This document shows positions 2,120 to 60,868 of a DNA stretch of 64,000 bases, in pieces. Made by a program: the position numbers and the translations under genes. Origin of the DNA: Negaprion brevirostris (Eukaryota). Position 1 is the first letter of the stretch. The number at the start of each line of letters is the position of its first letter. The DNA lies in assembly GCA_030324005.1 (NCBI GenBank), contig JARDVH010000163.1, positions 102,280,957-102,344,956 of the forward strand, in the 5' to 3' direction. A model generated the notes under the pieces. That model was given only the letters and a program-made list of their open reading frames with translations. It made no database searches and was not told the DNA's origin.

Positions 2120-2379
2120 GTATGCAGTGTGTCCTGGGGCAAGTCTCAGTGCCAGGTTTCCCCAAGCAACTCTCCATTTGGTCACAGCCCACACAAATGA
2201 AGAATGTCTTATCCCTCAATCTGTATCTTACATTAAGTCTACACATTGCGGCACAGACTTACTGCTGAACTGGACAAATCCTTCAGGAACAAAGCCGAGA
2301 GGACTGAGACCTCATGCAGCAAGTATCTTTCCCAATTTATTTTGCATTAGTGTGGGCACAGTAGTAATACAATATTGGG

Positions 2380-2612
2380 AAGTGGCTTGGCTCAGTTGGA
2401 TGAACAGCTGGTTTGTTAGTGACACCAAAATCGTGGGTTCAATTTAAATACTGGCTGAGGTTATTCATGCNNNNNNNNNNTCATGCAGGCCCACCTTCTC
2501 AACCTTGCCTCTTGTCTGAAGAGTGGTAATCCTCAGGTTAAATCACCACCACTCAGCTATCCCCTTCAAAGAGGAGATTAGTCTATGGTCATCTGGGACA
2601 ATGCTGACTTTA
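2380..2612 (+). mobile_element. Old tRNA-derived SINE
   Basis: A-box tggctcagttgg and B-box gggttcaatt, followed by a ~200-bp body and A/T tail; family not assigned. Confidence 0.55.
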
Positions 2613-6620: not shown

Positions 6621-7400
6621 TCATCTCAAGAATTTTGAAAATGCAATGTCAACTTATCAAGATACAGGGTCCATTAATCTGAACCTATAAGCAGCAGTTT
6701 ATCCAGAGATTCACCGAGGCAACTTCAGATGGATTGCTGAATTGGAACAAGGTATGCTAAAGATTAAGGACAATCTAAACTGTAAAGTACTTTTTAAAGT
6801 CAAAAACAGCTGCTGAACAAATATGCAAATCAAATCCTCAAGATGTTTGCATTTGAATTGATGACTTGCTATCTTTCTTGGATACTTGATAAAGTCAGCA
6901 CAATACTTGCATTAATGTAATGCCTTTCTCATAGAAGACATCAGGAACAACTGTGCATCAGCAGGGGTTGTCCCACTTTCTATGAATGATCCTATCTTTT
7001 AATTCCATGTGCACTGTGACAGAAACACAAGAGATAGGAGCATGAAAAAATTATTTATTTTTATCGCTACCATTAACTTATCTACTCATGTGCTTCATCT
7101 ATTTTGAGCTATAAATTAGGGGTGTTTCATTTTTGTGGAACCAATAGTGCATCATTACTCTTGACACCATATTCTAAGTATAAACGATTTCTCTCTCAAC
7201 CCACACAGAATTTAAATTCTGCTAAAACTTACCAGCCAGACATCAGGCTTTGAATCTAAATATCACATCTATTTGTTGAAACTGGCCCTGGAGGTGCAAA
7301 CCAGTACTTGTTAAACTGGGTCAAGCCTTATCTTGGTAACTCTGCCCAATTTTAGCCTGAAATCACTACAGACCCAATGCCACTTATAATTAATATTTAC

Positions 7401-7536
7401 CTCTGTCTGGACGAGATAGTTCCTTTGAGTCCTGATGTGTTTAAGAAAGCCGAGGACATTAACTGTGCTTTTATCTTTTATTTGTTTCAGCATGCTATCG
7501 AGCACAATATATGTTCCAGTTCTGCCAACACCAGCA
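7401..7536 (-). CDS. PTPRG: PTPRG D1 exon completing the [11 protein letters not shown]-loop (136 nt, phase 2 to 0)
   Basis: ccctatctag|TGCTGGT...ACAGAG|gtaaat; (S)[45 protein letters not shown]. Confidence 0.96.
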
Positions 7537-9134
7537 CTAGATAGGGAATAAAGGGAGTAAGGAATTTGCATACTATACACAAGCACAGCACGAACAGTGT
7601 AAAAATGTGATCTATCTGCAAGATCAAATGATAATTATGTTGATTAAATTACTATGCTTGCACTATTAAAGGCTTTTTGTTAATTCGATGGAAACACTTC
7701 ATTATATAATGACTGCTCCCTATATTCATTAATAAATGGTTCAATATATGGTATTTAATTGAATACACAAGTGTAATTATTAACAAGAGCAATCTTGTCT
7801 TCAGAAGTGTTATGTTTAGTCAGAAATGATTAACATACACACAGCTGCATGGCCAAACTACTTATCTTGGTTACTTCTCCCAGGATACGCTATCATTTTT
7901 CCCATTTTTTTTCTGTTCCATTTTCCCCTATGTCATCAGGCCTGGTAAATAGGCTCCTCTAATCCCTCTGTCATTGATAGTCTTGAATTGGTCTTTGGTA
8001 ACAACTGAGAATTTCTCAGTGATAAATGGGTCGCCAATACCCGCTCCAATATTCTCCCCATCCTCTACCGCTCCCATCTTTGTGGAAACTCTTGCCACCA
8101 CACTGAGAGGCAAACAAAATCATCAACTCAACAAAGTGGGGACTGAAACAATGTCCCCAAGATTCGGTTGCTCAGTGCATTTGACCACCATCTGCATTAC
8201 CCACCTTTCATTTTCTTCTGCATTGCCTTCAATGAACACGCTGGCCTGGAGTTTCTGCTCATGGTTCAATTGGGAAAAATCTGCCTATAATGCTGCATAC
8301 ACAGAACTGAATTTGCCAAAGACAAATCACGCCAATATTTGCACTCAAACTCATTTGCAAGCCTGAATGTAAAACCTCCCAAGTATCAGGTCAATGAAGT
8401 AATATTTTTGATTGTAATTGATTATTGACTCAAACAACGGGCCCTCAGGATTATTGAATTAAATTAATTTCTGAACATTTGTTCAAGCAATCCCCGCATC
8501 TGAAGACATATGACATCCAGTGATTTCAACTGCCTGCAGGTCACAGGTCTTATGTACCAAGGACAGGCCAAATTACTGAATTTTGACTAATTTAAAATTA
8601 ATTTTAAGCATTCTAATATAGCAACAGTATGTGGCGCAGACCTAATTGAGGCTTCAATTAACTGCTGATCACTACAGCGATACATCATTAATGTAGGATT
8701 ATTGTGACCAAGGATGCCCTTGCAATCAAACTTCTTAATTCCAGAAGAAGAAGAATCGGGATCAGGAGCCATTGGCGGAAATTCACCATGATAACATGGG
8801 AACATGGCTCATTTTCTGAGCAAGAGTTACTTCAGCCAAACTGACTTTTGAACTCAATGTAAACGATCATGAAAGCTCAAGGGTAGGTGGTTCCAAGCAT
8901 AATTCAAAAATGTTTTAAATTCCACAATCTTTTGCATTATTTTAGTCAATTCTGCCTGGATTCTGTGATAATAGGGTGGAAACCATAAACACCAGCACNN
9001 NNNNNNNNNNNNNNNNNNNNNNNNNNNNNNNNNNNNNNNNNNNNNNNNNNNNNNNNNNNNNNNNNNNNNNNNNNNNNNNNNNNNNNNNNNNNNNNNNNNN
9101 NNNNNNNNNNNNNNNNNNNNNNNNTTCCACATAC

Positions 9135-9307
9135 CTGCAATGTACTACTACTGGTCCCATGTCTGGTATCTGAGCCGCAGATGACTTTCTTACAAAGGTA
9201 AGTACAGGAAGTGCATATTCTGGTACCCCCATATCAGGCCACTGTGTATAGTGATATTGGATAACCATCCGTTCATTCTGACGACCCTTGGGGTTTCCCT
9301 TTTGTCC
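9135..9307 (-). CDS. PTPRG: PTPRG D1 exon with WPD loop and catalytic Cys (173 nt, phase 0 to 2)
   Basis: ggttacag|GGACAA...TTGCAG|gtatgt; [57 protein letters not shown](S). Confidence 0.96.
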
Positions 9308-9418
9308 CTGTAACCACAGTTTATCAGCATCAATGAATATATAAAATATGTGAATATGTAGCACTTTTATCTGGAGGACGGAGATGAATCTAAAACTGTG
9401 CCAACCAGGGCATCTTGT

Positions 9419-9722
9419 GGGTGGCACGGTGGTTAGCACTGCTGCCTCATGGCGCCAGGGACCCGGGTTCAATTCCAGTCTCTGTGGAGTTTACACATTC
9501 TCCTTGTGTCTGCGTGGGTTTCTTCAGGGTGCTCTGGTTTCTTCCCACAGTCCAACGATGTGCGGATTAAATTGATTGGCCATGCTAAATTGACCCTAAC
9601 GTCAGGGGGATTAGCAGGGTAAATGTGTGGGGTTACAGGAATAGAGCCTGGATGGGATTGTGGTTGGTACAGACTTGACGGGCCGAATGGCCTCCTTCTA
9701 CATTGTAGGAATTCTATGATTT
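9419..9722 (+). mobile_element. HE1-like V-SINE with CR1-derived tail
   Basis: tRNA head, V-core, 3' gggccgaatggcctccttct..ctgtaggaattctatgatt. Confidence 0.88.
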
Positions 9723-10431
9723 TATCACGACTAGACCCAACGCTCAAGTGTAATATTTATTTCTGCAATTTAGATTGAAATATGCAATTACAAGACAAAA
9801 AAAGTGAACATTTTGAATATCTTCAGAAAATTCAATAAAGTCAGAATTAAACCACCTAACGCTGATTTATACTTTAAATAGTCAACATCAAGAAAAAATG
9901 ATCGTATTACAAATTCACTTATTTATTAGGTGGCAATTCAGAACTGAACGGCAATGAAATCAATGCCATCTTTATTCCAAATTGCTCTTACGTTGTAACG
10001 CCTGTAAACAGACAAAATTTTGATTATCTTATGACACATTTTTGTAACCTCCCTTCCAAAGGTCTTCCTAGATGTTTTGGCTGTGGGGTCTAGGAGGTGG
10101 AAGATGGACTGATTTGGGGTCTGAGGGGGAGAGGGCTGTGCAGTTGGTTGAGTAGTGAGTCTGTTGGGGGAGAAGGCTGAGTGAGAGTCTGAAGGGGAGG
10201 GGAGATGGGCCTTAGTGGGATGTCTGAGGAGGAAGTCTGAGGGGAGAAGGTCAGGTCGGGTAACCCTCATGCCTGCATGGTGTGGGTGGGTGTAACCTGT
10301 TATTTGAGTGGTAATGGGAAGGATGCCCCCCTTTTGCTGAGGGGTTGGTGATGCTGCCCTGGATCTTTCAGCCCACCTGGTACATTTCCTGCTGAAAAAG
10401 GCTGGTGAATGGCAGAGGGTGTGTTTTAACG

Positions 10432-10728
10432 TTTTTAAAGTTTATTTATTAGTCACAAATAGGCTTACATTAACATTGCAATGAAGTTACTGTGAAAATC
10501 CCTGTGTTGCCACACTCCGGCACTTGTTAGGGTACTCTTGAGGGAGAACTTAGCACAGTCAATGCATTTAACCAACACATTTTTCAGATTGTGGGAGGAA
10601 ACATGAGCACCCGGAGGAAACCCAAACAGGCACAGGGAGAACATGCAAACTCCGCACAGACGTGACCCAATCTGGGAATCGAGCCCAGGTCCCTAGCGCT
10701 GTGAGGCAGCAGTGTAACCACTGTGCCA
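10432..10728 (-). mobile_element. V-SINE, same subfamily as 1835-2119, nested in a GC-rich DNA-transposon-like relic (about 10020-10920)
   Basis: Reverse complement of head/core; tail aaagtttatttattagtcacaa.taggcttacattaac. Confidence 0.85.
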
Positions 10729-10990
10729 ATGTGGTCTGGTGAATCGGCCAACAATCCCACTAACTGTATTACAATTAGCAGGTTTGCATAATTATTAGGT
10801 AGCCACCTGCTATGAGTCCGGCCAGATGGGTGAATCCCGACAGCCCTCATGCCCGGCGGGAATCCTGATTTTTAGTTGACGATTAGGAATCGGGATTCCT
10901 GCCACCCATCTGACAAGGACAGTGAATCCCCTCCTCCGCTTGTGTTTGTTTAAGAAGTATAAAAAGACACATTTATATTTCTACACTTAC

Positions 10991-11125
10991 CTTTTTAACT
11001 TTGGTGTTCCTTATAGTGAAGCGGCGTACAGTGCAACACGCCCGTACTTTTGTACTCTTCAAGGTGACAATAATATTGCCGTACTCTTCGTTGTTCTCAC
11101 TTGGCCAGTACTGATCACATTTTCG
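10991..11125 (-). CDS. PTPRG: PTPRG D1 exon (135 nt, phase 0 to 0)
   Basis: gtttttttttag|CGAAAATGT...AAAAAG|gtaagt; [45 protein letters not shown]. Confidence 0.96.
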
Positions 11126-11297
11126 CTAAAAAAAACAAGGAATAGAGTAGTTAAATTCCATTCAGAATGTGCCACAACAAAATGTCAAAATTACAATACA
11201 TTTTGTGCTAGCTATGGCTCCATTCATAACACACTTTCTTCTGAGTGAGAAGCTTGTGGGTTNNNNNNNNNNNNNNNNNNNNNNNNNNNNNNNNNNN

Positions 11298-11772
11298 ATT
11301 GCAGTATTGAAGGAGTGTTGCACTGTCAGGAGTGCTGTCCTTGGATAAAGTGCTGAAATGAGGGACTATCTGCCCTCTCAGGTGAATGTATAAGACCCCA
11401 CAATTTCTTCTCTAAAACAATGGGGGAGCAATGCTCAGTGTCATAGTCAATATTTATCAGTCACAAAACAGATTATCTGGACATTATCATATTGCTGCTT
11501 GTGGAAGCCTACTCTGTGCAAATCCCATTTACAACAGTGACTACACTTCAGAAGTACTGCATTGGTACTTGGCCCCTTAGTGTCAAGGAGATTATCAGGG
11601 TAAATAAGTGGGGTTACGGAGATTAGGCCTGGGTAGGATTGTTGTCGGTGCAGACTCAATGGACTGAATGGCCTTTTTCAGCACTGTAGGGATTCTATAA
11701 TTAGCTGAAGCCAATTTGGGACATCCTGTGGCCATACAAGCTGCTGTATAAAAACAAATCCTTTTTTCTTTT
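11298..11772 (+). mobile_element. Deu-domain (SacSINE1-like) SINE with nested 3' half of an HE1 SINE (about 11571-11700)
   Basis: gtgttgcactgtcagg..ctgccctctcaggtg..cagattatctgg.cattatcatattgctgcttgtgg..acaacagtgactacacttca; nested piece ends gcactgtagggattctat. Confidence 0.7.
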
Positions 11773-11879
11773 CAATGCAATTAACAGGCTGTGACAGTTG
11801 TATTTGAACTTCCAACTCTCACTTAATGTTAATTACTGGGCTGACGACACTTTGGTCTCTGCATAGCATGAATTATTTA

Positions 11880-12089
<210 letters not shown>

Positions 12090-12647
12090 TCAAGGGGAGA
12101 AAAGAAAATTAAAAAAAAACATTGATGTACAACCCAAAAATTCAAACACTGAAAACGTAAACTTCCATCATAACCGCTTTAAGCTGTGAAGGCTCTGACA
12201 TTTTGGTAACATAAAACCCATTTTCATTTCTTCGGCAGAATCTGAACTAAAAATTAGTGCAACTTCGCTGCACTAATATAAAAATTCAATTATTCAAATA
12301 ACAGACAATTTATATCCATATAATTTCAAGATTTTTCTTGACTCCATATCTTCTATTCTGCTGGAACAGAAAATTCTGCTTTAAAAATACAGTTTTATGC
12401 AAGCACAGGAACTGGATTGAAGATTGAAACTAATTTTATCTACGTTTTATTACAAAAAAAGTGAGAAAAAGAAGAATTTTAGCTTACTCGTCTCTGCCTG
12501 AGCTACAGTTAAACCAAGAGCTTTGAAACCAAACAACATTTACAAATAGTGTTCAAATCCATGATTCACCTAATACCTAATTCAGTTCTAGAATTCTTTA
12601 AATTGAATGAGCATGACAAATACAGTAAATACAAAATAATGACTTAC

Positions 12648-12730
12648 ATCGACATAATTGGCATTGATGTAGTCACTGTGCTTTGAATCCTTTCCTGGTA
12701 TTGGCCTTAGCTTAACTCTGCTGTGATCAT
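12648..12730 (-). CDS. PTPRG: PTPRG D1 exon (83 nt, phase 1 to 0)
   Basis: ccctctgcag|ATGATCAC...GTCGAT|gtaagt; (Y)[27 protein letters not shown]. Confidence 0.96.
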
Positions 12731-12863
12731 CTGCAGAGGGAGAAATATTAATCCACAAGAATAAATCAGTTTGCTCTTCATGTATATTTCAAATGTTACT
12801 TCACAAACTATAGATGATGACAGATATTTAACAAATAAAACAGTACACTAATCAGTGAGGCCC

Positions 12864-14473
12864 GTTTTTACATTTTTGACATGATTCAATTCAAAATATT
12901 ATTTAGGGAATGCTCAGTTGGCATGTGGTTCAGAATAATGCCTACATTATGGATATAACTTCCATTCGAATTCGGATCTGCTTCCTAACCCTGTCTGAGA
13001 GTGGATGGCAGTAGAAAACTACCACTGCCAAAAGAACTACCAGTAAAATAGTTTAGAATGAAGTATTAGCAGGCAAGGTGGCAAGTAAAGACCTGCCTTT
13101 GGGAAGAGTGCACTTAAATGAATGAATGAACACTGTAAACACAAAACAAGGACAATCAATGCCACTGAAATAATTTACTACTGCTATTTGGGGCTAAATA
13201 ATAATTTTCAGAAGCATTTTTAATCATTATAGAATCTTGATTGAACAACCCCAACAAGCTCAATGTTTTGTATACATGCTGCATTCCTTCACCACTCAAT
13301 TAAGGGAAATTTCAGTGCAATATATTTGAAAGACTGATTCAGATATTAATATATTTGAATCCAGCATAGTCTTACATGCTACAATGTTGATGTATCGGTT
13401 TTTGTGCTTGTTATCTGGATGGTTGGAATGTTCTGATGTGATGTTCATATCAGTTGTACAGCGCTGCACTTCCTAAAAATTGAAAAAGGGAGAAGGAATA
13501 CTTCATTGATTTCCTATTTCAGAGCATTTACATCCAATAGTTGGAAACACTACACATTCATTTTACCTACACAGATTATCATATACAAGTGAATACGTAG
13601 CAACAGAAAATATATATTTCAGGCTTTTTAAAGATGGAGACATTTCATTCGAAATATTGGACGAATTATGTGGTGTTTAATTATGGTTCAAAATGAAAAT
13701 TGAATTCCCATGAAGACTGAATGCATTTACCTAGTCAATAGTCAAGCCATACAGAATTAGGACATTGTAGCATGGACACTCAGCTTGCACCATCTACTTT
13801 CCGCACCTTGGGCAGCAGGTGAAACGCTGCGATTGGCCTCCATGCTATTGGATTTGGGCAAGGAATATAGTTTTTGCTTTTATTCCTGTCTAGCACTTCC
13901 TGTTGGAAGTCTGATCCAGGATTATCTGGGTCAATTGTAAATCCATTGCTTTTGAGAAGTATATCCCTTAGATGGGGCACAAGAGGGTGCAGGACTTGAG
14001 CAAAAACCTATACTTTTAACAGAGACAAGCAATTAAAATGTTTCAAAGAATAAAAAGGCAATGAAATGCTCTTCCTCGACAAGAAAAACACCATCAAAAA
14101 GGTTGGAGATGGCAGTTNNNNNNNNNNTAAAATAAATTTATATAAATTTAAAAGGCTGGTAGTTCCAGTTTTGAAGAGTTTAGTAGTTGCTTGTAAATAT
14201 GATGGGGTAGGCTTTCATTCTTCCTGCTTCGGCATTAAGCATTGTGAGAGAGGAGGACAAAACAGAAAATCTGATTGGGGGGGAATCACACTTTCCCTTT
14301 AGTCGATCCTTCTTGCAGACCTTTCTTTTGTGCATCAAGCAGGCAATGCTTAATGTCCATGTTGTAAAGTTAAACACTTGTCTGAATGTATGTATACATT
14401 TTGGCAATTGGTTGCATCATTATCGGTTTTTACATTTTTGACATGATTCAATTCAAAATATTATTTAGGGAAT
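12864..14473 (+). repeat. Exact 48-bp direct repeat pair (12864-12911 and 14426-14473)
   Basis: GTTTTTACATTTTTGACATGATTCAATTCAAAATATTATTTAGGGAAT present twice, 1562 bp apart. Confidence 0.9.
13376..13472 (-). CDS. PTPRG: PTPRG D1 exon with wedge and KNRY loop (97 nt, phase 0 to 1)
   Basis: atttttag|GAAGTG...GTAGCAT|gtaaga; [32 protein letters not shown](Y). Confidence 0.96.
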
Positions 14474-24299: not shown

Positions 24300-25215
24300 C
24301 TTGCGACGATACAAAACTTGAAAACATTGTGAACTGTGAGGAGGGTATAGTGTAGAACTTCAAAGGCTCATAGATAAGTTAGTGAAGTGGACAGACAAGT
24401 GGCAGATTAAGTTTAATGTGGAGAAATATGAACTGATTCATTTTGATAAGAAGCACATGGAGTGACAATATAAAATAAAGGGTACAACTCTAAAGGGGTT
24501 GCAGGAGCAGAGAGACCTGGGTGCATTTGTACATAAATCATTGAAGGGCAGGTTGAGGGAGAAGTTAATAAAGCATACAGGATACTGGGCCTTATTAATA
24601 GAGGCAAAGAGGACAAGAGCAGGACTGTTATGTTGAATTTGTACAAGACACTAGTTTGGCCTCTGCTGCAGTTTAGTACCTAGTGCAGTGATGCACTTCA
24701 TCACTGCACTAGATACTAGTGCAGTGATGCACTTCAAGAAAGATGTGAAGACTTGAGAGAAGGTGCAGAACAGATTCACAAGAACGATCCCATGGATAAG
24801 GAACTTTATTATGAAGAAAGATTGGAGAAGTTGGGACTACTTTCCTTAGACAAAAGGAAACAGATGAGATTTGAAAGAAGTATTCAAATTCATAAGGGCC
24901 CCAGATAGAGTAGATAAGGAGAAATTGTTCCCACCGTGAAAGGATCAAGAATGAGAGAGCGTGGATTTAAAGTAATCAGCAAAAGAGATATGAGGGGGAA
25001 CTTTTTTATGCAGCTAGTAGTTAGGGGTTGGAATGTACTTCCCAGGAGTGTGGCAGAGGCAGGTTTAATTGAAGCGTTCAGAAGGGAATGAGACTGTTTT
25101 CTGAAAAGGAAGAATGTGTAGGATTATCGGGAGAGTGGCACGAAGTGGGTTGCTCATTTGGAGAGCAGGTATAGGCATGATAGGCCAAATAGTCTCCTCT
25201 ACCAGTAACAACTCT
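24300..25215 (+). mobile_element. CR1 LINE 3' portion
   Basis: DDTKL..IVNCEE, WQ.KFNVEK, ERDLG, LYKTLV; 3' UTR taggccaaatagtctcct. Confidence 0.85.
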
Positions 25216-29780: not shown

Positions 29781-32519
29781 GTAGATAAGGCAGATGAAGT
29801 TAATTTTTTTAATTACAGATAACTATATGATTTAATTTTGACCAGAGATGTTTAAAAATTAATGCATCTATATTTTCCATTTCTAGTTTTAAGTGATTCA
29901 TTATCTGAATGGGCCTCTGCAAGATCACATCCTTGATGCTGTGTGATAAGAAGCACAGTGCAATCAAGAGCAAGTCCAGAGCTCCAGCTCCATTACTTTT
30001 TACATTCCAAGTAAACATATCCGAATGCAGTAAGACATTCTATCCCAGTTCCCTACTTTCCTGACCATTCGTCCACCCACTTAATGGCAAATACCAGGAC
30101 CATTTCTTTGGGACCCCAGCAGCAGCCTCTTTGCTGCCCAAAATCCTGCTGCAGTCAGTTAATGCTTTCCAACAGCTTTGGACATGAGTCTTATGGTGGC
30201 TGTGCAGGTGAAGCTCAGGTGTTGAAGTCTCCTGTGCCTAAGACTACAGGGGGTCATACAGTTGATCATCCACCTTGACTCCTCACCCAACACGGTTTTC
30301 AATCGACCCCTCGCCTGCACAGCTTTCAGTGAGAGTTGCAATCAGGACTATAGTACTGAGTTAGATTGGGGTGCAAGTTCTATGAGTATAGTTNNNNNNN
30401 NNNNNNNNNNNNNNNNNNNNNNNNNNNNNNNNNNNNNNNNNNNNNNNNNNNNNNNNNNNNNNNNNNNNNNNNNNNNNNNNNNNNNNNNNNNNNNNNNNNN
30501 NNNNNNNNNNNNNNNNNNNNNNNNNGCCCATTGCCTGCTGTTATACAGACAAACACAGCATAATGTATTGTATTAATACATCTGCTGAGAAAGATCCGTT
30601 AATGGAGTCCAGAGACTAGTCAAAACAGGAGGATCCTCTTAATAAATGTTGTAGGAGCTTTTGGCTATTAGGTTTGTAGTTTTCTCTGCAAATTGTAGTT
30701 GCAATGTCCTCACTTGCAACAAATTTACTGGCTAACTCTTCACAGCCCCTTACACAAGGAGGAGTCTCTTAAGAGCACAATGGTGGAAGACAAGGAAGTA
30801 TCTTTGGCCGACATTGTAAAGTTCAAATTTATTGTAATTCCTTCCAACAGCAAGTTCTTGTATGAGAAAAATCAGAAGCGCTAAATTTGAGAAGCAAAGA
30901 GGGGCAACTAAGGAATAGGCCAGTACACATTCATGTGCTGGACCCATTAAAACTGAACTATATGGTGCTGTTTGAAACAACATGATTAATATTTCTGATA
31001 GGTTTAGGAATTTTGATCTACTAACGTTCAAAGGTCCCTGACAAATATTTTGCCATGTTTCAATAGCTGAATTGCTCCCTCCAAACGGTCCTGAAGCTGG
31101 ATGTGCTTCATCATAGGTGTGCATAGCAAGATAATTTATCAGGTTATAAAAATACAGAGAATATTGCAAACTGAACTATTTATTGGCTAATACTTAATGT
31201 TGGATTGTATCCTACTGACTCTAACGTTGTCAGGTAATTAAGCGTGCTGTAGCTTTGAAAATGTGATTATTGTTGCCAGTGTCTGAATGCACCTCCCTTG
31301 AGCTGACACTGCTACCGTGTGCTGCTTGGTTGCTTTCTTATTAGAAATGCTGTATTGGTTCATTTGATAAACTGTTTATACAAAGACATCAGCATAATAG
31401 TGGAAGTTCCCTTTATCAATAAATTGGCAGGATGTGGTTTTGTTTTTATACTTCCCACATTTCAGATGGAATTTAATTGAATCGCTCTTGGCGAGTTAGG
31501 TAGCAGGGGNNNNNNNNNNNNNNNNNNNNNNNNNNNNNNNNNNNNNNNNNNNNNNNNNNNNNNNNNNNNNNNNNNNNNNNNNNNNNNNNNNNNNNNNNNN
31601 NNNNNNNNNGGGGTTATTTAATCAGGTGGGAGGGTGGCCTGCCACCAACTCTCCTTCACTCTAATTAAGTCTATGGCGGAAGGGCCCAGTGGCAGCCACC
31701 CTGTCCTGTCACCTTTTGAGGCTCTCAAGTGGGCAATTAATGCTCAGTTAAGGGCCTCACTGCCAGTGATGCTACTAATTCAGCTACTAAGGCAGTTTGG
31801 GAACTAGGCATGTGAGGAACTTGACAAATCCATGTGCAGGTTCCCAGGTTGTCCCATTTTCAAAGGCTCTGATTGAAGGACCTGACATCAGGATGGGGGT
31901 GTAACTGCCGACAGCTACTGACATGACCTTGATGCTGACCCTCCTTACTCACAACTCCAAATTGCAAACTCCTTCCTGCCATCAGTCACCTGTGACCTAG
32001 GTTCCAGTGGTGATACTAGGGCTCAGGTGGATGTTATGTTGGAAACAGATACCGCCCCTCTGATTAGTTGGTAGATCCTGGCCAGCAGGATCACTGTTCC
32101 CGGGTTCTTGATTCCAGGAAAGATCCCCCACTGTACAGTTAACTGTCTGAGTGGTACTTAATCCTGCGGGCCTTCCCTAAAACAGGCAACTTCTTTCCAA
32201 TTTCAAGTACAATGCTGTGTAGAAGAATCATCAGAAGCCAAGGTCAGTTCCCAGAAAAGAACTGAAAAATTGGAAAGGTGACCACCCTGTACTTCTTTCA
32301 GGCACATCCTCTCGGTATTGGTCGAAGCCGTGGAGCAATCTCCAGCTTATCCTCTAATGGGACAATCTCCACCAGATAATATAACAAAAACAGCAAGACC
32401 ATCTCCACCAAAGCAATCTTTGTTTAAAACAACTCATTTAAAAAAAGATAGGTATTAAACTTGTGCCTGTGGGTTAGAACGGACATCCAGTTACGTTCAA
32501 GGTTCTGTGTTACTTTCTA

Positions 32520-33275
32520 GGTTTGTGGATGACACCAAAATTGGTGGTGTGGTGGACAGTGAAGGAGGCTATCTCAGATTACAACGAGATCTTGATCAAC
32601 TGGGCCAGTGGACTGACAAATGGCAGATGGAGTTTAATTCAGATAAATGTGAGGTGTTTCACTTTTGTGAGACCAACCAGGGCAGTGTTTGCACAGTTGA
32701 TGGTAGGTACCGGGGGAGTTTTGTCGAACAAAGAGGTGCAGGTACATAGTTCCTTGAAAGTGACATCACAGGTAGACAGGGTGGCGTTTGTCACACTTGC
32801 CTTCATTGGTCACAGCATTGAATACAGGAGCTGGGACTTACGTTACAACTGTAGATGACATTGGTAAGACCATGCTTGGAGTACTGCATACAGTTCTGGT
32901 CACCCTGCTATAGACAGATGTTATTAAACCGGAAAGGGCGCAAAAAAGATTTACATGTTACCAGACTTGAAGGTTTGAATTATGAGAGGCTGGATAAGCT
33001 GGGACTTTTTTTCCCTTGAGCTTAGGAGAATGAGGGGAGGCCCTATAGAGATTTATAAAATCATGAGGGGTATAGATAAGGTGAATAGCCAAGATTCTTT
33101 CTTCAGTGAAGGGGAGTCCAAAACGAGAGGGCATATGTTTAAGTGACAGGGGAAAGATGTAAAAGGGATCTGTGGGGTAGTCAAACGGGACTAGTTCAGT
33201 TTAGGAAACCTGCTTGGCATGGACAAGTTGGATCTAAGGGCCTGTTTCTGTGCTGTATATCTCTATGATTCTATG
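32520..33275 (+). mobile_element. CR1 LINE 3' portion
   Basis: FVDDTKIGGVVDSE.GYLRLQRDLDQLGQW..KWQMEFN; tail ctctatgattctatg. Confidence 0.9.
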
Positions 33276-39724: not shown

Positions 39725-41080
39725 ATAAGAAAATAAATCATAGGAGCAGGAATAGACCATGGTAGAATAGACCATGGTCTACAGTAGACCATTTAATTAG
39801 ATCATGGCCCTTTCTTGCCTGTGCTCCAAAGTCCTTGACTCTCGTCAATCAAAATGCTGTCTAACTCAGCCTTGAATATATTCAATGACACAGCCTCCAC
39901 TGCTCTCTGTGGAACAGAATTCTAAATATTAATGTCCACCTGAGAGAGAAATTCCTTCTCAAATCCCTCTCAAATGGGAGACCATTCATTTTATAAAATA
40001 TGCCTCCTGGTTCCAGATTCCCCCATGAAAGGAAACCTCCTCTCAGTGTCTACCTGATCAAGTCCCTTCAGGATATTACATGTTTCAATAAGATCAGCTC
40101 TCATTCTTTGAAATGTCAATGCATATAGGTCCAACCCCTTTAACCTTTCCTCATAATGTGTGCTTTCCTCACCCCTTCATCCCAGGAATCAATCCAGTAA
40201 ACCTTCGTTGAATTGCATCCAAGGATCATAAATTCCTTCTTAAATAAGACAATCAGAACAGTACACAGCACTCTAGGTGGTGCCTCACCAATGTTTTATT
40301 TGGTTGTTGCAAGATTTTCTGACTTTAATACTCCATTCCCCTTGCAATAAAGACCAATATTCTATTTGCTTTCCTAATTACTTGCTGTATTTACATGNNN
40401 NNNNNNNNNNNNNNNNNNNNNNNNNNNNNNNNNNNNNNNNNNNNNNNNNNNNNNNNNNNNNNNNNNNNNNNNNNNNNNNNNNNNNNNNNNNNNNNNNATA
40501 TTCTATTTGCTTTCCTAATTACTTGCTGTATTTACATGCTGATTTTTTCTGAATCATGCACAAGGATACCTACATTGGGGCTGAGTGCACATCTGTGCAG
40601 ACTAGAATCACACATCACCCCCCAACATGAAATTGACATATCTTCTATGCCAGAGGATTTCAAAGGGATCTTCTCACATGTTCAGCTTCTGACAGTGAGA
40701 AAGGAAAATCTTCATTGCAAGATGAAGTGCTGCAATGATTCAAAGGCCTGCTAGATGACCAGGAGGCATGCAGATTAAAGAGACCGGGCCATTGGCTTCA
40801 TTAGCATTTTTCAGGTGGATAAATCCCACCTGACAGATGCTGAGCGGGAAACACTCTCGTTTTCACAGCAGCATGGGCCCTTAGCCTCAAAATGAGAGAA
40901 TTCAGCCTTACATGTATTGGTTTTCCTTCATCCATCCTGTTTGCTATAGTTTCAAAGAATGTTAATAAGTTTGCCAAACATGATTTCCCTTTTAGAAAGC
41001 CATGTTGACTATGCCTGATTGCTTCCTCATTTTCTAAATGTCCTGTTACTACCTCCTTAACAGTGAATTCCAGCATTTCC
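39725..41080 (-). mobile_element. CR1 LINE fragments (39725-40570 and 40908-41080) separated by another repeat
   Basis: 3' end cataggagcaggaatag; ORF IRHSQHGFLKGKSCLANLLTFFE. Confidence 0.8.
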
Positions 41081-45435: not shown

Positions 45436-47179
45436 AAATCTCCAAAGTACAATCATTTCATAAGGATGCTTCACACAAAATTAGATAGATCAGTTATAAT
45501 TTTTGCTATAGTAATTGTACTCAGAATTAAATAGAGATTTAATTAAAAGGAAAAGCTAGAAATTATGAAAACTAACTCAGCACTGACTTTTACGAAACTT
45601 TGTCTACAGACTGAATCGGGTGCTAAATAATTTATGGCTGTGTGAGAGAATGCTGGAGGCCATGTTTGAACAATGAATGGGAGTACCTCATGTCATTTTA
45701 CTCCAGTGAAATGAGTGCAGAACAAATCTGATGTAACTCAATTAAACATTTCCACGTTCCCTGCATTCCCTTAAAAAACTGCCCTCCAGATGACACTGTA
45801 ATTGCTGAAACCTTTATGCCAAGCCATGATAATACACAGGAGTATTTAGAAACTGATTATCCATTATGTGACCTTTGACATGGATAGTTGAAGTTTGTGC
45901 TTTTGTATTTCTCATCAATGTAAAGAACATATGTTTGCTACACATAGTGATTTGTCGTGAGGATAACTACAATGCTATTCAGGCTTTTACTGTGGACAAT
46001 TATAACAGCACAAATTCTGCACAGGAACTGCTGATTTGAAACAGAATTGGTATTTTACTAGTGAAACCCTGAAAAAGTACAGAAACATTTTGAACCACAG
46101 ACACCAATTTGCACAATGAGTGGGTGAAAGGGGGAGCAAATTTGAGAGTTATTGTTTTCTGATGGGACTTTTGAAATTGTTTGAGCATTCAAATCTGCTT
46201 TGGAAAAGAGATGAGAAATTCTTTAGTCACATTAGCGATTTTACACAATCACTGAAGTGATGCCAGTTTTGAACTTTCTGGATTGGGAGATAAATATTTT
46301 ACTGGCCTTTTTACTTATGTGAAACTGATATTTTCATGTTTACAATTTTCTATGAAAATGTCAAAATCATGGAATATAGTTATCGTTTGAATCAAGTGAG
46401 CTGTTGAAAGCTTTAAAAAACCATTCTTGGATAAAATAAGATGGATATGTTTCTGTTGCGCAATACATGGGCACCTCTCAGCATTCCTTTTACTCATGGC
46501 AATGGCGTCTTCAATGCATCAGTAAAGTGTTTGGAAGATCTCAAGTTGATAAAAAGGTTTTTTTGTGCCTCTTTAATGAGCATCAGTCTCTTAATTCTGA
46601 AGACAGAACAGACTCCTTCAGATAAAGCCTACAGCAGGGGGCCAGTCACCATGACAACTTCAGTGAATCCTGAAAAGCTCACATTACCATTTGGGAAGCA
46701 GTTGCTAAAAGTTGCTGAGGAATCAATGCTTTGGTAGTACTGCGACATGTTTTCAATGCTTATTGAATGCTTACACTGTTATACCAATCGCTCAAGCACA
46801 GTAAAATACATGTCAGAAGCCTTATGTAAATCATGAAGCCAAGGCAGCAGAAAACATTGGTGACTAAACTGACAGCCCTAAAATGGATTCTGCAATCGCG
46901 ATGCGCATTTAACCTGTGCCCGTTGATTAAAATGCAGGCAGCATGTCAACTTCGTGCTGCCTGCTCATTTTAGTGGTTAGTGCGTGCAGCCAGCACAAAG
47001 CACGCTGTTTATTGGGTGCACGCAACAGCAGGGCATCTGAAATTATAACTTTCTAGCACTTCTTAAAGCAAGCCTGCACCCCTTAAAGAGCAAGTTGCAT
47101 TTGGCTGGAGCAGGAGCTGAAAGTTGTACTGGAAACAGTGAAGAATGGCACAAACTTCCAAGGTTTTCGGATGTCAATC

Positions 47180-48128
47180 CAATGTGGCTAACTGTGAATT
47201 ATACACTTTGGTGTGAAAAACAGAAAGGAAGAGTATTATTTAAATGTGATATATTGGGAAGTATACAAAGAGACCTAGGTGCCTTTGTACACCAGTCAAT
47301 GAAAGTGGAGAGGCAGCTGCAGCAAGCAATTAGGAAGGCAAATGCATCTCGGCCTTTTGGCTAAGATGTAAATGAGATCAAGCCTTGGAGAAGATGCAAT
47401 GCCTACTAGGAGGTGCGAGCCCTGTCTTGTCAGCTTAGATCAGGAATGTCTCACTTGTTGAGACTCTGAATTGGACTTGATTTGATTGAATTGGATTTAA
47501 AAAAATTAGGAAGGTAAATGGTATGTTAGACTTAATTTCTAGAGTTCAGAAATAGGGTTGTCTTATTGCAATTATACAGGGCCTTGGTGAGACAACACCT
47601 GGAACACTGCATGCAGGTTTGTTCTTCCTATGTAAGAAAACATATACTTGCTATATAGGGAGTGCAGCTGAAGTTCACTAGGCTGATACCAGGATTGATG
47701 GGACTGTCCAATGAGGGGAGATTGCTTCCACTGGGCTTGTATTCACTCGAGTTCAGAGGAATGAAAGGAGATATGATTAAAACATATCAGGACTGAGCAG
47801 ACAAGATGCGTGGAGGATGTTTTCTCTGGTTGGAGAATCTAAAAGCAGGGTACACAGTCTCAGGATATAGGGTAAACTATTTAGGACTGATATGAGGAAA
47901 AATGTCTTCACTCAAAGGGTAGTGAACCTGTGAATCCTCTATCACACCAGATTACGGAGGCCAAGTCACTGAATGTACTCAAGAAAGACAGGTAATTTTT
48001 TAGAACTTAAAGGCATCAAGGCGTATGGGCTGAAAGCAGGAATATGGCATTGAGATAGAGAATCATATTGAAAAGTGGAGCAAGCTTAAAGGGCTGAATG
48101 GCTATTCCTGTTCCTTGTTTCTATGTTT
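47180..48128 (+). mobile_element. CR1 LINE 3' portion, interrupted by the U2-headed insert
   Basis: QRDLG.FVHQS.KV..Q.QQAIRKANG.L, LY.ALVR.HLE; tail cttgtttctatgtt. Confidence 0.85.
47345..47503 (+). mobile_element. U2 snRNA-headed short retroposon (SINEU-like or U2 chimera)
   Basis: Starts with TCTCGGCCTTTTGGCTAAGAT (U2 5' stem-loop I), ends in (TTGAT/TTGGA)-rich repeats plus an A-run; TSD AATTAGGAAGGYAAATG at 47328-47344 and 47504-47520. Confidence 0.8.
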
Positions 48129-48129
48129 T

Positions 48130-48870
48130 TACGTATGGTGATGAAAATGTTCTGGGTAGTGTGAAATTTTTTTGTATTCTTTCACAAGCATAGTTGGCTG
48201 GACAAATATTTGCAGCCCATCCCTAACTGCTCTTGAGAAAGTGGTAGAGAGTTGCCTTTTGAACCATTGCAGGTCATATAATGCAGGGAATAGGACTCCA
48301 GGATTTTGATTCAGCAACAGTGAAGGAATGATGACGTAGCTCCAGGTCAAGATGGTACATTGCTTGGAGAGGAATTGCATGGAATGGTGTTCCCATTCAT
48401 TTGCTGCCCTTGATTCCTAGAGGTAGATTTGGAAGGTGCTATCAAAGGAGCCTTGGTAAGTTATTGTAGTGCATCTTGTGTATGGTACACACTGTTGCCA
48501 CTGTATATCTGTGGTGGAGGGAGTTAATATTTAGGTTGGTGGATGGGTGCCAATTAAGTGGCCTGCTTTGTCCTGAATGGTGTCAAGTTTCTTGAGTGTT
48601 GTTGGAGCTGCACTCATCCAGGCAGTGGACACTATTCCATTTCACTCCTGACTTGCATCTTGTAGGTGGTGGACAGGTTTTGGCAAGTCAAGAGGCAAGT
48701 TACTTGTCACAGATTTCCTAGTCTCTGACCTATTCTTGTCGTCACAATATTTGTATGTCTAGTCCAGTTCAGATTCTGATAAATCATAACTGCTAGGATA
48801 TTAAAACTGAGAGATTGGGTGATGGTAATGCTATTGAATGTCAAGTAGAAATTCTCCTTTATTGGAGACA
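48130..48870 (-). mobile_element. Non-LTR retrotransposon 3' portion (26645 family)
   Basis: gcccatccctaactgctcttgagaaagtgg..gtgttgttggagctgcactcatccaggca, shared with 37585-38570. Confidence 0.75.
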
Positions 48871-49479: not shown

Positions 49480-50500
49480 GGTGGAAAGGAACAGAGGGAT
49501 CTTGGAGTACAAATACATAAAAATTGTGCCACAGGTTAGCAAGGTCATTAAAAAAAAATTGGCTTTACTTCCAAAGGGAAAGAACTGAACAATGTGGAAT
49601 AGGAAACATGTAAATATGTAATAATATGTAAATCTGTATCAAACCTTGGTTAGACCACACTTACAGATTACTGCATGTTGTGCCACACTAAGAAAGTCAT
49701 ACAGAGGCACAAGGATGTGGTTATATATATGGAAAGAATTGAAAGACTGAATTACTTTAGTCTTGAAAAAAGGCTAATAGGTGACCTACTAGAGACCTAT
49801 CAAATTATCGAGATTTTGCTGGAGTGGATACAGAGGGAATGTTTCCTCTTTTGGGGAAGAGTTAAATGAGAGTCCATCAATATTTCATTGCCACCAAGAA
49901 CTCCAGTAGGCACTTCAGAAGAAATCGTTTTACCCAAACAGTGGCGAGAATATAAAACTTGTTAGTACAGGGAGTAGTTGAAGCGAATGGTATTGATGCA
50001 TTTAAGGGGAAGCTAGACAAATATGAGGAGCGAAGGTGAACAAGGTTATGACAGGCTTATATAAGATAGACGTGGAGAAACTCTTCCCATTAACTGATTG
50101 TACAAGGACAAGGAGGGATTACAGACTTTGGGCAAGAGATTCAGGAGGAATGTTTTTATGCAGCACGTAATGATGTGGAACACACTGTCCATAAGGGTAG
50201 CGGATGCAAAAGTGATCAATAATTTCAAAAGGAAGTCGGATTGGCACTTGAAGGAAATAAATTTGCAGGGCTATGGAGATTGAGCGGGGACGTAGAGCTA
50301 ACTGTATTGCTCCGTGGGCAGCTGGCATGGACTTGTTGGACCAAATGGTTTCTTTCTGTGCTGTGAATGCTCTAAGGGAATAGAGGATTATAATGATAAA
50401 TTATGATGTGAGGAGCCTTGAGTGGAGTGTAAACACTAGCATAGATTGGTTGGGCTGCATGGCCTAATTCTGTGTTGCAGATGCTATATAATCCTATGTA
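49480..50500 (+). mobile_element. CR1 3' portion with a second CR1 3' end nested (about 50065-50375)
   Basis: EQRDLGVQIH, LVRPHL, FSLEKRL.GDL.E.Y; two separate 3' UTR ends. Confidence 0.8.
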
Positions 50501-51331
50501 ATATTTCAAAGAGAAAGGACAAGTTAATGTTTCACGTACATATATTTTGTCAGAATTTGTCAGCTCTGTGGAGAAACCAAGGTTAATTAACTCCCCTATG
50601 TGCTCGGATTAAACTCCTATCCCTGAAAGCCCAGCCCACTAATGCCTTCAACAGTATTGCTGTCCAGCTCAGACAGAATCATTTAAATCCAATTCAAACT
50701 ACACAAGCTAGCAGTTTCTTTGAGACTTGAGAGAACGTAAGCCAGAAAAAACAGTAATTGGTCCCTCTCAGCTAGACTGAACGTTCAGCCAGAAAGAAAA
50801 GAGAAAATAATTAGAAGGCAACAAAAGCTTGATGTTTTCTGAAATGGATTTATTACTCGAGAACATGTGCAACTGTGGAATCTTGGCAAAATCTCCTCAG
50901 TTATGGAAAAGAAAACCACACAAACACACGCCTCCATTAACATGAAGGCTGTTGTCATTCTATCCTCTTCAGTTTGTACCAACGCTTACATATCTTTGCC
51001 CTTGATTGCACAGACCTCTTCAAATGGAAATTTAGATCACACCCAGGATTATGGCACATTTAGACCTCAAGGTTGATTTCTAGGAACACAGAAACAGGTA
51101 TAGGCCAGTCCAAACTTGAGCCCCTTCCCTCTTTCAATTAAATCGTGGCTGATATGCAACTTAAACTCAATTAATCCACCTTGGTTCCATAACTATCACC
51201 AATCATTCACATGTTCTCCGCATCTAATTGGCTATGATGATTGCCTGCTTAAACACAGTTTGTTTCTGCCATTACATCTTTTGACACTCTTTTATCTTAA
51301 TCTTGGACAGGTCTTATCACCTTTTGACACA

Positions 51332-52569: not shown

Positions 52570-54640
52570 AAGATCATAAGACAAAGGAACAGGAGGAGGA
52601 AATTCAGCCCCTTGAGTTTGTTTGCTCTGCAATTCTGTTAAGATCACGATGGATCTGACTGTGACCATAACTCCACTTTCCCACCCATCCCATCTATAAC
52701 CTTTGACTCCCTTGGTAACAAAAATGTCAAACTCAGACTTGAATGGATTCAAGACCCAAGTTCCATTGCGCTCTGTGAAATACAATTTCAAAGATTAACA
52801 ACCAGCTGAGGGAAGGCATTTTTATCATTTCCAACTTAAATGGTAGATCCCCTTACTCTGAAACTTATCCCTAGTTCTACATTCCTCCACAAGATGAAAC
52901 ATTTTCTTAGTGTCTACCTTATCTGCCCCTCAGAATATTATATGTTTGAATAAGATCACCACTCATTCTTCCAAACTCAATGAGTACAGGCCCAACCTGC
53001 ATAACCTTCCCTCACAAGAAAATCCACCATCTTCGGAATCAGCCTAGTAAGCCTTCTCTGAACTGCTTCCAATACAAGTGTACAGAACTGTACACAAGGC
53101 TCTAAGCGTGGTATCATCAGTATCCTGTCTGCACCTTGGATGATGGATGTGCTCTCCCTCCACAGCCTCCAAGAGGGCTTTGATCTATCGCTTGACTCCG
53201 CCCATCCCCAGCCTCTGGCATTTTTTGCCCCCTGTATTTTTGTAGCAATACTTCCTTAGTTTTATACCCCTTGCAATGAAGACCAACATTCTATTTGCCT
53301 TCCTGATTACTTACTGTACCTATGGGGAAACCAGGCAGTTACATCCAGGTAAGGACTCAGCACGTTCAGGTGGAACATAGGAATTAGGAGCAGAAATAGA
53401 CAGAATCAGTCCTTTGAGGCTGCTCCATCACTCAATCAGGTAATGGCTGATCTCACCCTGGTCTCAAATCCACCTCCCCATCTGTTCCCATATTCCTTTA
53501 TGCTTTTTGTAAAATTAGAAAGATATCTATCTCTTTCTTGAAACCATTCAACGATTCAGACTCTAACACGCCATGGGACAGCGAGTTCCAGAAATTCACC
53601 AACCTCTGCGAGAAGTTGTTCCTCTTCATCTCAGTTTTAAATTCACTGCCTCTCCACCTATTTCTGTGACCTCCTGTTCTAGATTGCCCTGTAAGAGGAG
53701 ACATCAGGTCTACATTTATTTGATCGATCCCTTTTGAAATTTTATATACATCGATCAGATCCCCTCTCATCCTTCTAATCTCCAGCAAGTACAAGTTGAA
53801 ACAGTTTAATCTCTCCTCATACATCAACCCCTTCATCTCCAGAATCAATCTGGTGAATTTCCCTCTGAACTGCCTCCAATGCCACCATATCCTTCCTCAA
53901 ATTAGGAGACCAAAACTGGACACAATACTCCTGATGTGGTCTCGCCAACACTCTATACAATTGCAACAACACTTCTCTATTTTTATACTTCAGTCCTTTT
54001 GCAATAAATGCCAACATCCCATTTGCCTTTTTTATTACATGCTACACCTGCATACTGACTCTCTGTGATTCATGAACAAAGATACCCAGATCAGTCAGCT
54101 GGACACATAGTGAATCTGCTTTCCAAAATGGATAACCTCACATTTATCCACATTAAACTCCATCTGCCAAATTTTGGCCCATTCTCCTAGCCTATTTATG
54201 TCCATCTGTGAAATCTTTATATCTTCTTCACTGCCTGCTTGCCCGTCTATTTTAGTATCATCTGCAAATTTTGCTGTTACACTCTGCCCCTGCTTGCAGA
54301 TCATTTATACAGATTATAAACAGTTGAGGTCTGAGGATCTACCCTTGTGACAGCCCGCTAGTTATGTTACCTGCAGGTTCCTGATTATCCACCTTGCTGG
54401 TTATGTCCTCAAAGAGCTCAAGCAAGTTTGTTAAGCATGACTTACCCTTCATAAAACCATGTTGACAATGGTGGATTGAGCTTTGTCCTTCCAAATGGAC
54501 AGTCATCTCCTCCGTAATGATTGATTCCAGCAACTTCTTCACCATAACCTTTCGCCATAGGATAAACTCTTCATTCCAGGAATGAATTGAATGAACCTTC
54601 TCTGAACTGTTTCAAACACAATCATATCCTTTTTGAAATG
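52570..54640 (-). mobile_element. Cluster of CR1 fragments (52570-53325; 53373-54540; 54545-54640)
   Basis: Peptides QHGFMKGKSCLTNLLE, AKFADDTKI, WQMEFNVDKCEVIHFG, YEERL..RRMRGDLI; two 3' tails. Confidence 0.9.
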
Positions 54641-58555: not shown

Positions 58556-59527
58556 ACATTAGGTAAGTGGCCCCTAAATATTAGGGGAGAACTCTAATAT
58601 CTCGAACCTGATTTAAATATTGGGAACAAGGAGTGAAGCTTCTATTTTAAAGTAATTGTTCATTAAATTAATTAAAATTGAGCAATTAATGACTCTGGAA
58701 GATTTGTCTGATCAAATGGCATCTTGAAAAAAGATTTGTGTGTTTAATTAATCATCTTGACTAATAGTCAGTTCCTCCAAATAAGGTTTTTCTTAATGAA
58801 ATTGGAGGTAATTAAGTACATACTTTGTCCACCTAAATCAAGTATGGAAAAAGGCCTCTCAGCAAGTTAACAGAAGTTGTCCCAAGCTTCTGAACCGGAT
58901 CTCCAAATACTGAGACAGAGTTTGCATGAAGGTTAAAAACTTGAGTCAAATACCCAAAAGGAAGGATTTGTCAAGCTACTACAAAAAATGAGGTTAGATT
59001 TCTAATGATCTTGTCACAATCTTAGATATTGGAAACCTACCAGCTATACGTTAAACAGATTGTAAATACAGCCTTGTTATCCCGCACTGTAAACTTCAAC
59101 AATGAAAGTAATTTCTTTATATTAAGTGCGCTCCATCTCATGCTGAGACAGTGATACATTCAAATTAATGTTGTGCCATGACTCTTTAGATTCTGTTCAC
59201 TGATACAAAATGTCCAATTATTGTAAAATAGAGTGGATTTTGATCGTAGTGTTAAATAAAGTATGCACTAGTTACAGCATCTTTACACTCCCGCTATGCA
59301 AGTATATCTTTCCTTAGATAAGGAGACTAAAACTGCACTTGTTCCTACAAGCATGGTTTCACCAAAGCTTTACACAATTGCAGTGAGGCATCTTTACTTA
59401 AAATTCTCTTTTAATAAAGTCCAACATACCATTTGATTTCTTAATTGACTGCTGTACCTGCATGTTAGCTTTCAGTAACAAGGACACCCAATCCTCTGAA
59501 GTTCAACACTTCCTAGTCTCTCATCAT

Positions 59528-59815
59528 TACTGCTGCAACACAGTGCCAGGGACCTAAGTTCGATTTGTGGCTTGGGTCACTGTTTTTGAACAGTCACGTT
59601 CTCCCACGTTCTGCTTGGGATTTCCTCTGGGTGCTCCTGTTTCCTCCCACAATCTGAAAGACGTGCTGGTTAGGTGCATTGGCTATGCTAAATTCTCCCT
59701 CAGTGTACCCAAACGAGCGCCAGAGTGTGGTGACTAAAGGATTTTCACAGTAACTTAAGTGCAGTGTTAATGTAAGCCAACTTATGACACTAATAAATAA
59801 ACTTTAAAACTTTAT
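59528..59815 (+). mobile_element. V-SINE (1835 subfamily), 5'-truncated
   Basis: V-core plus tail ttcacagtaactt..gcagtgttaatgtaagcc.acttatgacactaataaataaacttt. Confidence 0.85.
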
Positions 59816-60526: not shown

Positions 60527-60868
60527 GGGCAGCACGATGACACAGTGGTTAGCACTGCTGCCTTATAGCGCCAAGGACTTGGATTCGATTCCATCCTTGG
60601 GTGACTCTCTGGGTGGAGTTTGTACATTCTCTTGTCTACATGGGTTTCCTCTGGGTGTTCCAGTTTCCTCCCACAGTCCAAAGATGTGCAGGTTAGGTGG
60701 ATTGACCATGCTAAATTTCCTCTTAGTGTCCCAAGTTGTGTAAATTAGGGTGGTAAATACATGGTTACAAGGATAAGGCTTGTGTCAGATGCCCCATCAG
60801 AGATTCGGTGTGGATTTGACAGATCAAATGGCCAGTTTCTGCACTGTAAGGGGTCTATGATTCTATGA
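60527..60868 (+). mobile_element. HE1-like V-SINE with CR1 tail
   Basis: gggcagcacg.tg.cacagtggttagcactgctgcct head; tail ctgcactgtaa..ctatgattctatg. Confidence 0.85.

Follow-up and report, generated by a model that had tools for sequence, protein, structure and literature searches.

The window, by which we mean the whole 64-kb stretch of DNA analysed here, is about 38% GC and rich in CR1-type LINE sequence. Three of its 85 long open stretches have Pfam matches: two are tyrosine-phosphatase exons, both on the minus strand, and the third is a reverse transcriptase (RT) fragment. The exon at 7314-7634 on the minus strand is closest to PTPRG among solved structures, and further phosphatase-like exons lie at 11-13.4 kb; we place PTPRG-like receptor tyrosine phosphatase exons on the minus strand across 7314-13403 and possibly at 30753-31175, and none was found beyond 47.5 kb of the window. 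Our focus is a 159-bp insert at 47345-47503, which sits between 17-bp repeats inside an old CR1 element. Because the PTPRG-like exons are on the minus strand, the insert probably lies in an intron of the PTPRG-like gene and antisense to it, and this copy is itself probably neutral intronic DNA.

The insertion and its CR1 host

The host of the insertion is the C-terminal part of a CR1-type ORF2 on the plus strand. It was recognised by tblastx at 47197-47343 to the left (left edge approximate) and by blastn and tblastx at 47521-48135 to the right (right edge approximate), where it continues to the 3’ end of the element; CR1-like contig pieces from the runs described below begin at 47197-47203. 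Paralogues of the left flank were found by tblastx in the window at 54021-54153, 40506-40571 and 59432-59548, and the right flank has blastn or tblastx matches at 59286-59446, 53374-53993 and 39804-40336. The flanks translate as ...QQAIRKAN on the left and IRKVNGML... on the right. One paralogous CR1, near 59446, crosses the insertion site without the insert (QQSIKKSNGMLDF), and insert-free CR1 contigs connect 47344 directly to the right flank, providing empty sites. Stops and a frameshift interrupt the host CR1 frame just 3’ of the insertion site. An earlier note on this DNA had described the CR1 ORF as cleanly split at IRKAN|G; since the frame was already dead, that wording fits the junction and does not extend to an intact reading frame. 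Further decayed CR1-type fragments are scattered at 24508-24546, 32459-33059, 39804-40571, 49827-49961, 52725-54611 and 59286-59548, and a SINE copy interrupts the 5’ side of the last of these.

The two target-site duplications (TSDs), at 47328-47344 on the left and 47504-47520 on the right (both plus strand), were defined by comparison with each other and are identical at 16 of 17 positions, an agreement with a chance of 6e-9 for one given pair of places. The single difference is a C>T change in the right repeat, which we assign to the copy at 47345-47503 because the paralogous CR1s read KAN there. G47344, the last base of the left TSD, is also present in family copies, whose contigs align from 47344 on, and constitutes a 1-nt 5’ microhomology. 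The tail of the insert (47467-47505, plus strand) contains a 9-mer present twice, at 47467 and 47487, and TTGAT-like units; it closes with an A-run (47499-47505), of which the final two A are part of the TSD. The longest stop-free stretch within the insert is 29 aa. The 17-bp duplication around a 159-bp insert and the TTGAT-like tail with its A-run had been noticed before and are confirmed here, as are the hallmarks of target-primed reverse transcription (TPRT), namely the long TSD and the A-run. No second copy of the insert was found in the window; the best other match, a 16-mer at 50682-50697 (E 0.008), lies in an unrelated context and was set aside.

A U2 stem-loop I piece without its branch-point arm

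Positions 47344-47367 (plus strand) correspond to U2 snRNA nt 4-27, which form stem-loop I, and are identical to human U2 at 23 of 24 positions when compared by eye with the sequence printed in an excerpt of bioRxiv 2021.08.01.454689. Within this segment, 47347-47367 is an exact 21-mer of human U2 nt 7-27; by our own arithmetic, a 21-mer identical to some stretch of U2 would occur in a 64-kb window with a chance of about 5e-6. The Rfam U2 model matches 47347-47366 over its positions 7-26 with 19.5 bits (E 0.23), which falls short of the gathering score (46), and among Rfam matches around the insert at E up to 1, U2 alone is listed. Readings of the insert as an H/ACA, 7SK-like or ribozyme RNA were dropped, no Rfam family reaching its gathering score in the window.

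The U2 piece is followed by a 7-nt non-U2 spacer (47368-47374, plus strand) that takes the place of the branch-point arm and is common to most aligned copies; among the spacer variants listed, one reaches 5% or more (G>A at 47374, about 9% of the depth in run X1). Immediately after the spacer, 47375-47382 is again U2 sequence, identical to nt 24-31. The insert contains neither the branch-point arm nor any of the U2 sequence that lies 3’ of this arm in the snRNA. No colinear U2 continuing into the arm, the Sm site and the 3’ stems was found, the Rfam match covering model positions 7-26 only. The segment 47344-47369 folds as a single hairpin (z -4.9) that is mostly U2’s own stem, and the two positions that depart from U2 at the base of this stem, 47346 and 47368, each add a Watson-Crick pair. 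The earlier note had reported 21 nt matching the U2 5’ end and a repeat of part of the U2 piece past a 7-nt spacer, and had judged the insert not to be a simple U2 pseudogene; all three statements stand.

A dispersed, high-copy family

Part of the insert is present in 21 of the 24 runs listed. Fewer than five sampled words were found in 11 of these 21; ten of the 24 held five or six of the 12 sampled 31-mers, and these ten represent five labelled organisms and two unlabelled samples from six studies. No RNA run is listed among those that contain insert words. Four of the 24 runs (X1, X2, X15 and X21) were aligned to 47050-47700 at 85% likeness, X1, X2 and X15 as contigs; X1 and X2 belong to the ten runs with five or six 31-mers. 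X1 is probably from the same species as the window, its flank contigs showing 0 differences in 179 and 137 bases, and X2, with 5 differences in 170 bases and 3 in 126, is from a related species. X15, which we guess to be RNA, held fewer than five of the 12 sampled 31-mers; X21 consists of raw reads, of which six aligned, none across the insert body.

In X1, summed contig depth ranges from 53,908 to 171,641 over the six bins that fall entirely within the insert, where the single-copy flank has 7.4. The corresponding range in X2 is 60,973-263,757, with 9.1 at the flank, and in X15 the insert bins reach 1,009-3,458. Immediately 3’ of the insert end, depth in X1 and X2 drops to about 370. The naive ratio of insert to flank depth is about 7,000-29,000, a figure built on summed contig depth, which is not a copy number; by our own estimate, more than 200 copies remain after allowing for an overcount of up to 31-fold from overlapping short contigs. 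At 47437, the distinct contigs carrying the family base number 108, 122 and 36 in the three contig runs. Together, these contig depths suggest that the dispersed copies number between hundreds and some ten thousand. The loose ends listed for X1 and X2 include no shared 3’ flank, and no listed contig piece covers the whole aligned stretch or the whole insert. Variants at 47374 (G>A), 47390 (an alternative loop), 47442 (A>G/T) and 47452 (an extra A) are common to X1 and X2, and therefore point to subfamilies that predate the separation of these two species. Outside these runs, element motifs had no match in metagenome contigs or GTDB genomes, and the U2 part had none in viral contigs; a match in viral contig L001:1-1767 was rejected as a chance 20-mer in a contig resembling an RNA-virus RdRp gene. 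Upstream of the insertion, a GC-richer, hairpin-like segment at 46880-47093 has a depth of about 50 over 47050-47093, as against 7-9 alongside, which indicates that a low-copy repeat ends there.

Anatomy of the family unit

The anatomy proposed here was read by eye from the listed loose ends together with the window sequence. Overlapping loose ends lie behind 47407 (20 contigs in X1, six in X15) and before 47408 (27 in X1, 34 in X2), one X2 joint holds a 39-letter insert at 47407|47408, and long contig pieces begin at 47408. Other copies hold about 36-39 extra bases at this point, and the window copy is internally deleted by 36 nt, with the end of a first module and the start of a second gone at the junction 47407-47408. 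The 159 bp that the earlier note took as the family unit are thus a shortened version of it. With the missing bases restored, the family body forms two tandem stem-loop modules, each of which starts with GATCAAGCC, ends with TCAGCTTGGATC, and is predicted to fold into a hairpin in which a 1x3 internal loop separates the outer stem from the inner one and a 7-nt loop caps the latter. The window copy retains the 5’ part of module 1 (47375-47407, plus strand), which comprises the outer-stem arm, the inner-stem arm, the 7-nt loop and the first bases of the 3’ arm, and the 3’ part of module 2 (47408-47441, plus strand), which comprises the loop, with a B-box-like 11-mer at 47412, the inner-stem arm and the outer-stem arm. 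A47437 is G in 126,749 of 127,367 X1 depth (99.5%), and with G the outer arm is identical to that of module 1.

In each module the first six inner-stem pairs are Watson-Crick throughout; four of the six differ between modules on both sides. A group of variants behind 47390 (30 contigs in X1, 69 in X2) alters the loop of module 1 and keeps its stem. These compensatory inner stems suggest selection on the RNA fold; perfect module stems can also arise by fold-back template switching. In the window copy the deleted module region folds no better than shuffles (z 0.0), and the whole insert folds modestly (z -1.8). A small third hairpin near the 3’ end (47448-47464, plus strand) is a weak candidate for an RT-recognition stem-loop (z -1.7, with 15 of 200 shuffles folding equally well), and its stem is extended by the extra A behind 47452 found in 23 X1 and 45 X2 contigs. 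Longer A-runs occur in other copies, as seen in an X15 loose end behind 47502 (nine contigs, agreement 0.6).

In each of the three contig runs, the largest listed group of 5’ loose ends has in common an extension, at least 30 nt long, that precedes 47344 (48 contigs in X1, agreement 0.73; 79 in X2, 0.70; nine in X15, 0.84). Because most other copies share these bases 5’ of the U2 part, the description of the element as U2-headed is right for the window copy and may not extend to the family. Over the 30 letters visible, the extension consists of a 5-bp hairpin followed by an AATTTTT run, and the median loose-end length in X15 is 85. It has no match in the 64-kb window at up to three mismatches, and by eye it is unlike the human U1 and U2 sequences printed in the excerpts used. 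The X2 consensus can be aligned with the excerpted human U4atac 3’ end (stem and Sm site) using one gap, 19 of 22 columns being in agreement. Scored by hand, this alignment reaches 25, as do four of 121 control pieces of 1,300 nt; the X1 and X15 consensus scores 20, which 24 of 121 controls reach under a null computed with the X2 motif. Since the controls are pieces without Sm sites, and U11 and U5 fit the extension about as well by eye, we treat a U4atac origin as a lead only. The extension also weakly resembles the element’s own tail, with 42 of 2,668 control pieces scoring as well.

Discussion

The insert belongs to a high-copy SINEU-like family whose anatomy is more complex than first described. 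The explanation that we favour, with a probability of roughly 0.6, is a non-autonomous retroposon of this kind, probably transcribed by Pol II and mobilised by TPRT of the L1/Tx1 type, most likely with an independent origin in what is probably a cartilaginous fish. The family RNA would be at least about 225 nt long and would comprise the 5’ extension, U2 stem-loop I without the branch-point arm, the two modules, the 3’ hairpin and a poly(A) tail. Pol II would make the transcripts at a few master loci, relying on an upstream promoter that is either of snRNA type or supplied by the host, and TPRT with the borrowed endonuclease and reverse transcriptase of an L1- or Tx1-clade LINE would place copies at new sites. 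The window copy would then be a 5’-shortened, internally deleted member that landed in a dead CR1.

Transcription by Pol III is unlikely, because a terminator, the TTTT at 47355-47358 in the U2 part, lies before the internal boxes, which are themselves weak (an A-like box at 47358 with two mismatches, and B-like boxes at 47393 with two mismatches and at 47412, an 11-mer with one mismatch; a B-box with at most one mismatch is expected 0.024 times per 160 nt). The extension carries a further T5-T6 run. Our best guess is that Pol II transcribes a few master copies, using promoters of the snRNA type or promoters in their flanks. With respect to mobilisation, CR1 and L2 elements usually leave short TSDs or none, and for this reason the host CR1 is not a likely partner, and we infer TPRT by an L1- or Tx1-clade element. 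The nick site keeps just two T of the mammalian L1 consensus, TTTT/AA; this poor fit favours a Tx1-like or fish L1 enzyme. For the crocodilian elements, passages of Kojima 2015 (PMC4494074) describe poly(A) tails, partial duplications, snRNA pieces added on the 5’ side and mobilisation by Tx1, and there too oligo-T was argued to speak against Pol III and Pol II transcription was proposed.

The main alternative, possible if unlikely, is that the insert is instead the 3’ end or 3’ UTR of a longer L1 or Tx1 LINE, or of a non-autonomous derivative, with a captured U2 fragment; the window copy would then be an ordinary 5’-truncated insertion halted at the base of the U2 hairpin. Most copies that reach 47344 do go on into shared sequence, with the median length in X15 given above, and since the extension is seen over 30 letters only, a long upstream body could follow. 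The long TSD, A-tail, 1-nt 5’ microhomology and structured 3’ region also match L1/Tx1 3’ ends, and some Tx1-Mar LINEs have U1 or U2 pieces, but in the available text of PMC4494074 these are 5’-terminal. What weighs against a LINE 3’ end is that X1 depth is no lower on the 5’ side (171,641 at 47358-47379 vs 93,953 at 47468-47489), that the window copy begins at most one base from the start of the U2 similarity, and that the 30 visible upstream bases are a hairpin and then a T-run, like the 3’ parts of snRNAs. It is tempting to speculate that the family descends from an undescribed, structured snRNA-like RNA of cartilaginous fishes, made by Pol II, in which a U4atac- or U11-like hairpin and an Sm-like T-run were fused to an extended U2 stem-loop I and the two modules, although we consider so specific an ancestry improbable. 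If it were true, selection would act on the fold of the master RNA, which might form an Sm-type particle and represent a lineage-specific chimeric snRNA, and the family would be the first SINE of snRNA origin to have a minor-spliceosome RNA as its basis.

Alternatively, the unit may truly start at U2, with the shared 5’ sequence being a preferred target or a tandem neighbour copy. The crocodilian SINEU-3 offers a precedent in its Mariner-N4 target and common tandem insertions (313 of 347 near-full-length copies are flanked by Mariner-N4, according to the excerpted text of PMC4494074), the weak likeness of the extension to the element’s tail points the same way, and the window copy begins at the U2 boundary. 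We nevertheless doubt it: a fixed target predicts a shared 3’ flank or an echo of the TSD after the A-run, neither of which is among the listed loose ends, the nine X15 contigs that pass the A-run agree at just 0.6, and the window copy sits in CR1, in a window that lacks the extension. The U2-Keno chimera raised in the earlier note fares worse. A non-autonomous Keno or Utopia derivative inside a U2 gene could be co-transcribed with the U2 5’ piece from the U2 promoter, Keno (Tx1 clade) is present in vertebrates and targets U2 (PMC4640811, PMC6136364, in part), and by eye a short motif equal to U2 nt 32-36 opens module 2 in the loose ends. Yet the U2 similarity stops at nt 27 (or 31) rather than at nt 37-38, the tail is followed by CR1 rather than by U2 nt 39 onward, and a transcript from the U2 promoter should carry no shared extension upstream of U2 nt 4, which makes such a chimera very improbable. 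Finally, a one-off template-switch chimera or U2 pseudogene would suit the single copy in the 64-kb window and was the outcome that the earlier note had named as fatal to a family, but head, spacer, body and tail are deeply covered in three runs (X1, X2 and X15) from three organisms, and this explanation is refuted.

For the SINEU-like retroposon that we prefer, SINEU elements remain the closest described kind, as the earlier note had proposed, given the U2 origin, the many copies of shared structure and the poly(A) tail. The comparisons that follow refer to passages of the cited papers. Three features of the SINEU class, namely U1- or U2-derived sequence, dispersed copies with shared structure and a 3’ poly(A) tail, are present in the insert family (PMC4494074). 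SINEU units also begin with the snRNA piece, as the window copy does and most family contigs, with their extension, do not seem to, and they are short (under about 500 bp), lack an ORF and have no working Pol III promoter. As in SINEU-1, there is a short U2 piece at or near the 5’ end, a non-U2 body, partial duplications, additional sequence upstream of the U2 piece in many members, a poly(A) tail, oligo-T, a high copy number and, within the insert, no ORF; SINEU-1 belongs to a crocodilian host and the insert family probably to a cartilaginous fish, and the two are compared by description (PMC4494074). SINEU-1 TSDs are about 10 bp and occasional, whereas the insert copy has a clear 17-bp TSD, and the target is CR1 rather than the Mariner-N4 of SINEU-3 (PMC4494074). 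SINEU-3 keeps the 5’ 32 bp of U2 and drops about 50 bp after them, much as the insert family drops the branch-point arm; unlike SINEU-3 and SINEU-2, the insert has no middle or 3’ U2 segment and no U1 head (PMC4494074). Keno and Utopia share the tie to the 5’ region of U2, and Tx1-type machinery is a plausible partner, but they bear ORFs and are inserted at U2 nt 37-38, their 3’ flank being U2 from nt 39, neither of which applies to the insert (PMC4640811, PMC6136364). snRNA-L1 chimeras and tailless U2 retropseudogenes likewise join snRNA to other RNA, with TSDs and TPRT; those are independent one-offs, whereas spacer, body and tail are shared across copies of the insert family (PMC4494074).

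According to the excerpts of Kojima 2015 (PMC4494074), a statement repeated in a 2017 review (PMC5381603), SINEU were found in crocodilians and not outside them. We consider an origin of the insert family independent of crocodilian SINEU most likely. Other short high-copy repeats of cartilaginous fishes include SacSINE1 and the CmiSINEs (PMC5499810) and NSRE1/2 (PMC1513397); SacSINE1-CM and the CmiSINEs have a common L2-type tail (PMC5499810), the term snRNA is absent from both PMC5499810 and PMC1513397, and the printed NSRE probe primers match the insert, by eye, over a 7-nt start only (PMC1513397). No snRNA-derived SINE in cartilaginous fishes was found in the literature searched, which included passages of PMC5786205, PMC5499810, PMC1513397, PMC6887750 and PMC13343379 and lay mostly outside subscription papers, and three element motifs had no match in a full-text literature search. 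The family may nevertheless already be present in Repbase or Dfam in uncurated form.

A high-copy family outside crocodilians, in several related species with public genomes, would indicate repeated origin of snRNA-derived SINEs. Another vertebrate origin in which the branch-point arm was lost, as in SINEU-3, would make this loss look rule-like for U2-derived mobile elements. How snRNA-derived SINEs without an internal promoter are transcribed is a question posed by Kojima 2015 (PMC4494074, in the part consulted), and the many copies and subfamilies should permit tests of the Pol II master-locus model, of the partner LINE and of branch-point-arm loss. Moreover, the co-varying double module offers a concrete structure for tests of RT recognition, and insertions that are present or absent with clear TSDs could be used as phylogenetic markers.

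Other repeats in the window

A SINE of roughly 300 bp is represented in the window by five copies or pieces that are 71-83% alike (1845-2110, 9420-9597, 10433-10728, 59529-59809 and 60532-60717). We take it to be of the HE1/V-SINE type of sharks and rays, HE1 being a short high-copy repeat of cartilaginous fishes, and it is this SINE that suggests a cartilaginous fish as the host. The insert has no blastn similarity to these SINE copies. [quoted passage not shown] Short repeats, direct or inverted and identical or nearly so, lie by N-gaps at 922-971/1072-1121, 40357-40397/40498-40538, 39276-39340/39527-39591 and 5764-5822/57827-57885; they are probably artefacts of assembly or scaffolding. A 45-bp imperfect palindrome, 89% self-complementary, lies at 24674-24718.
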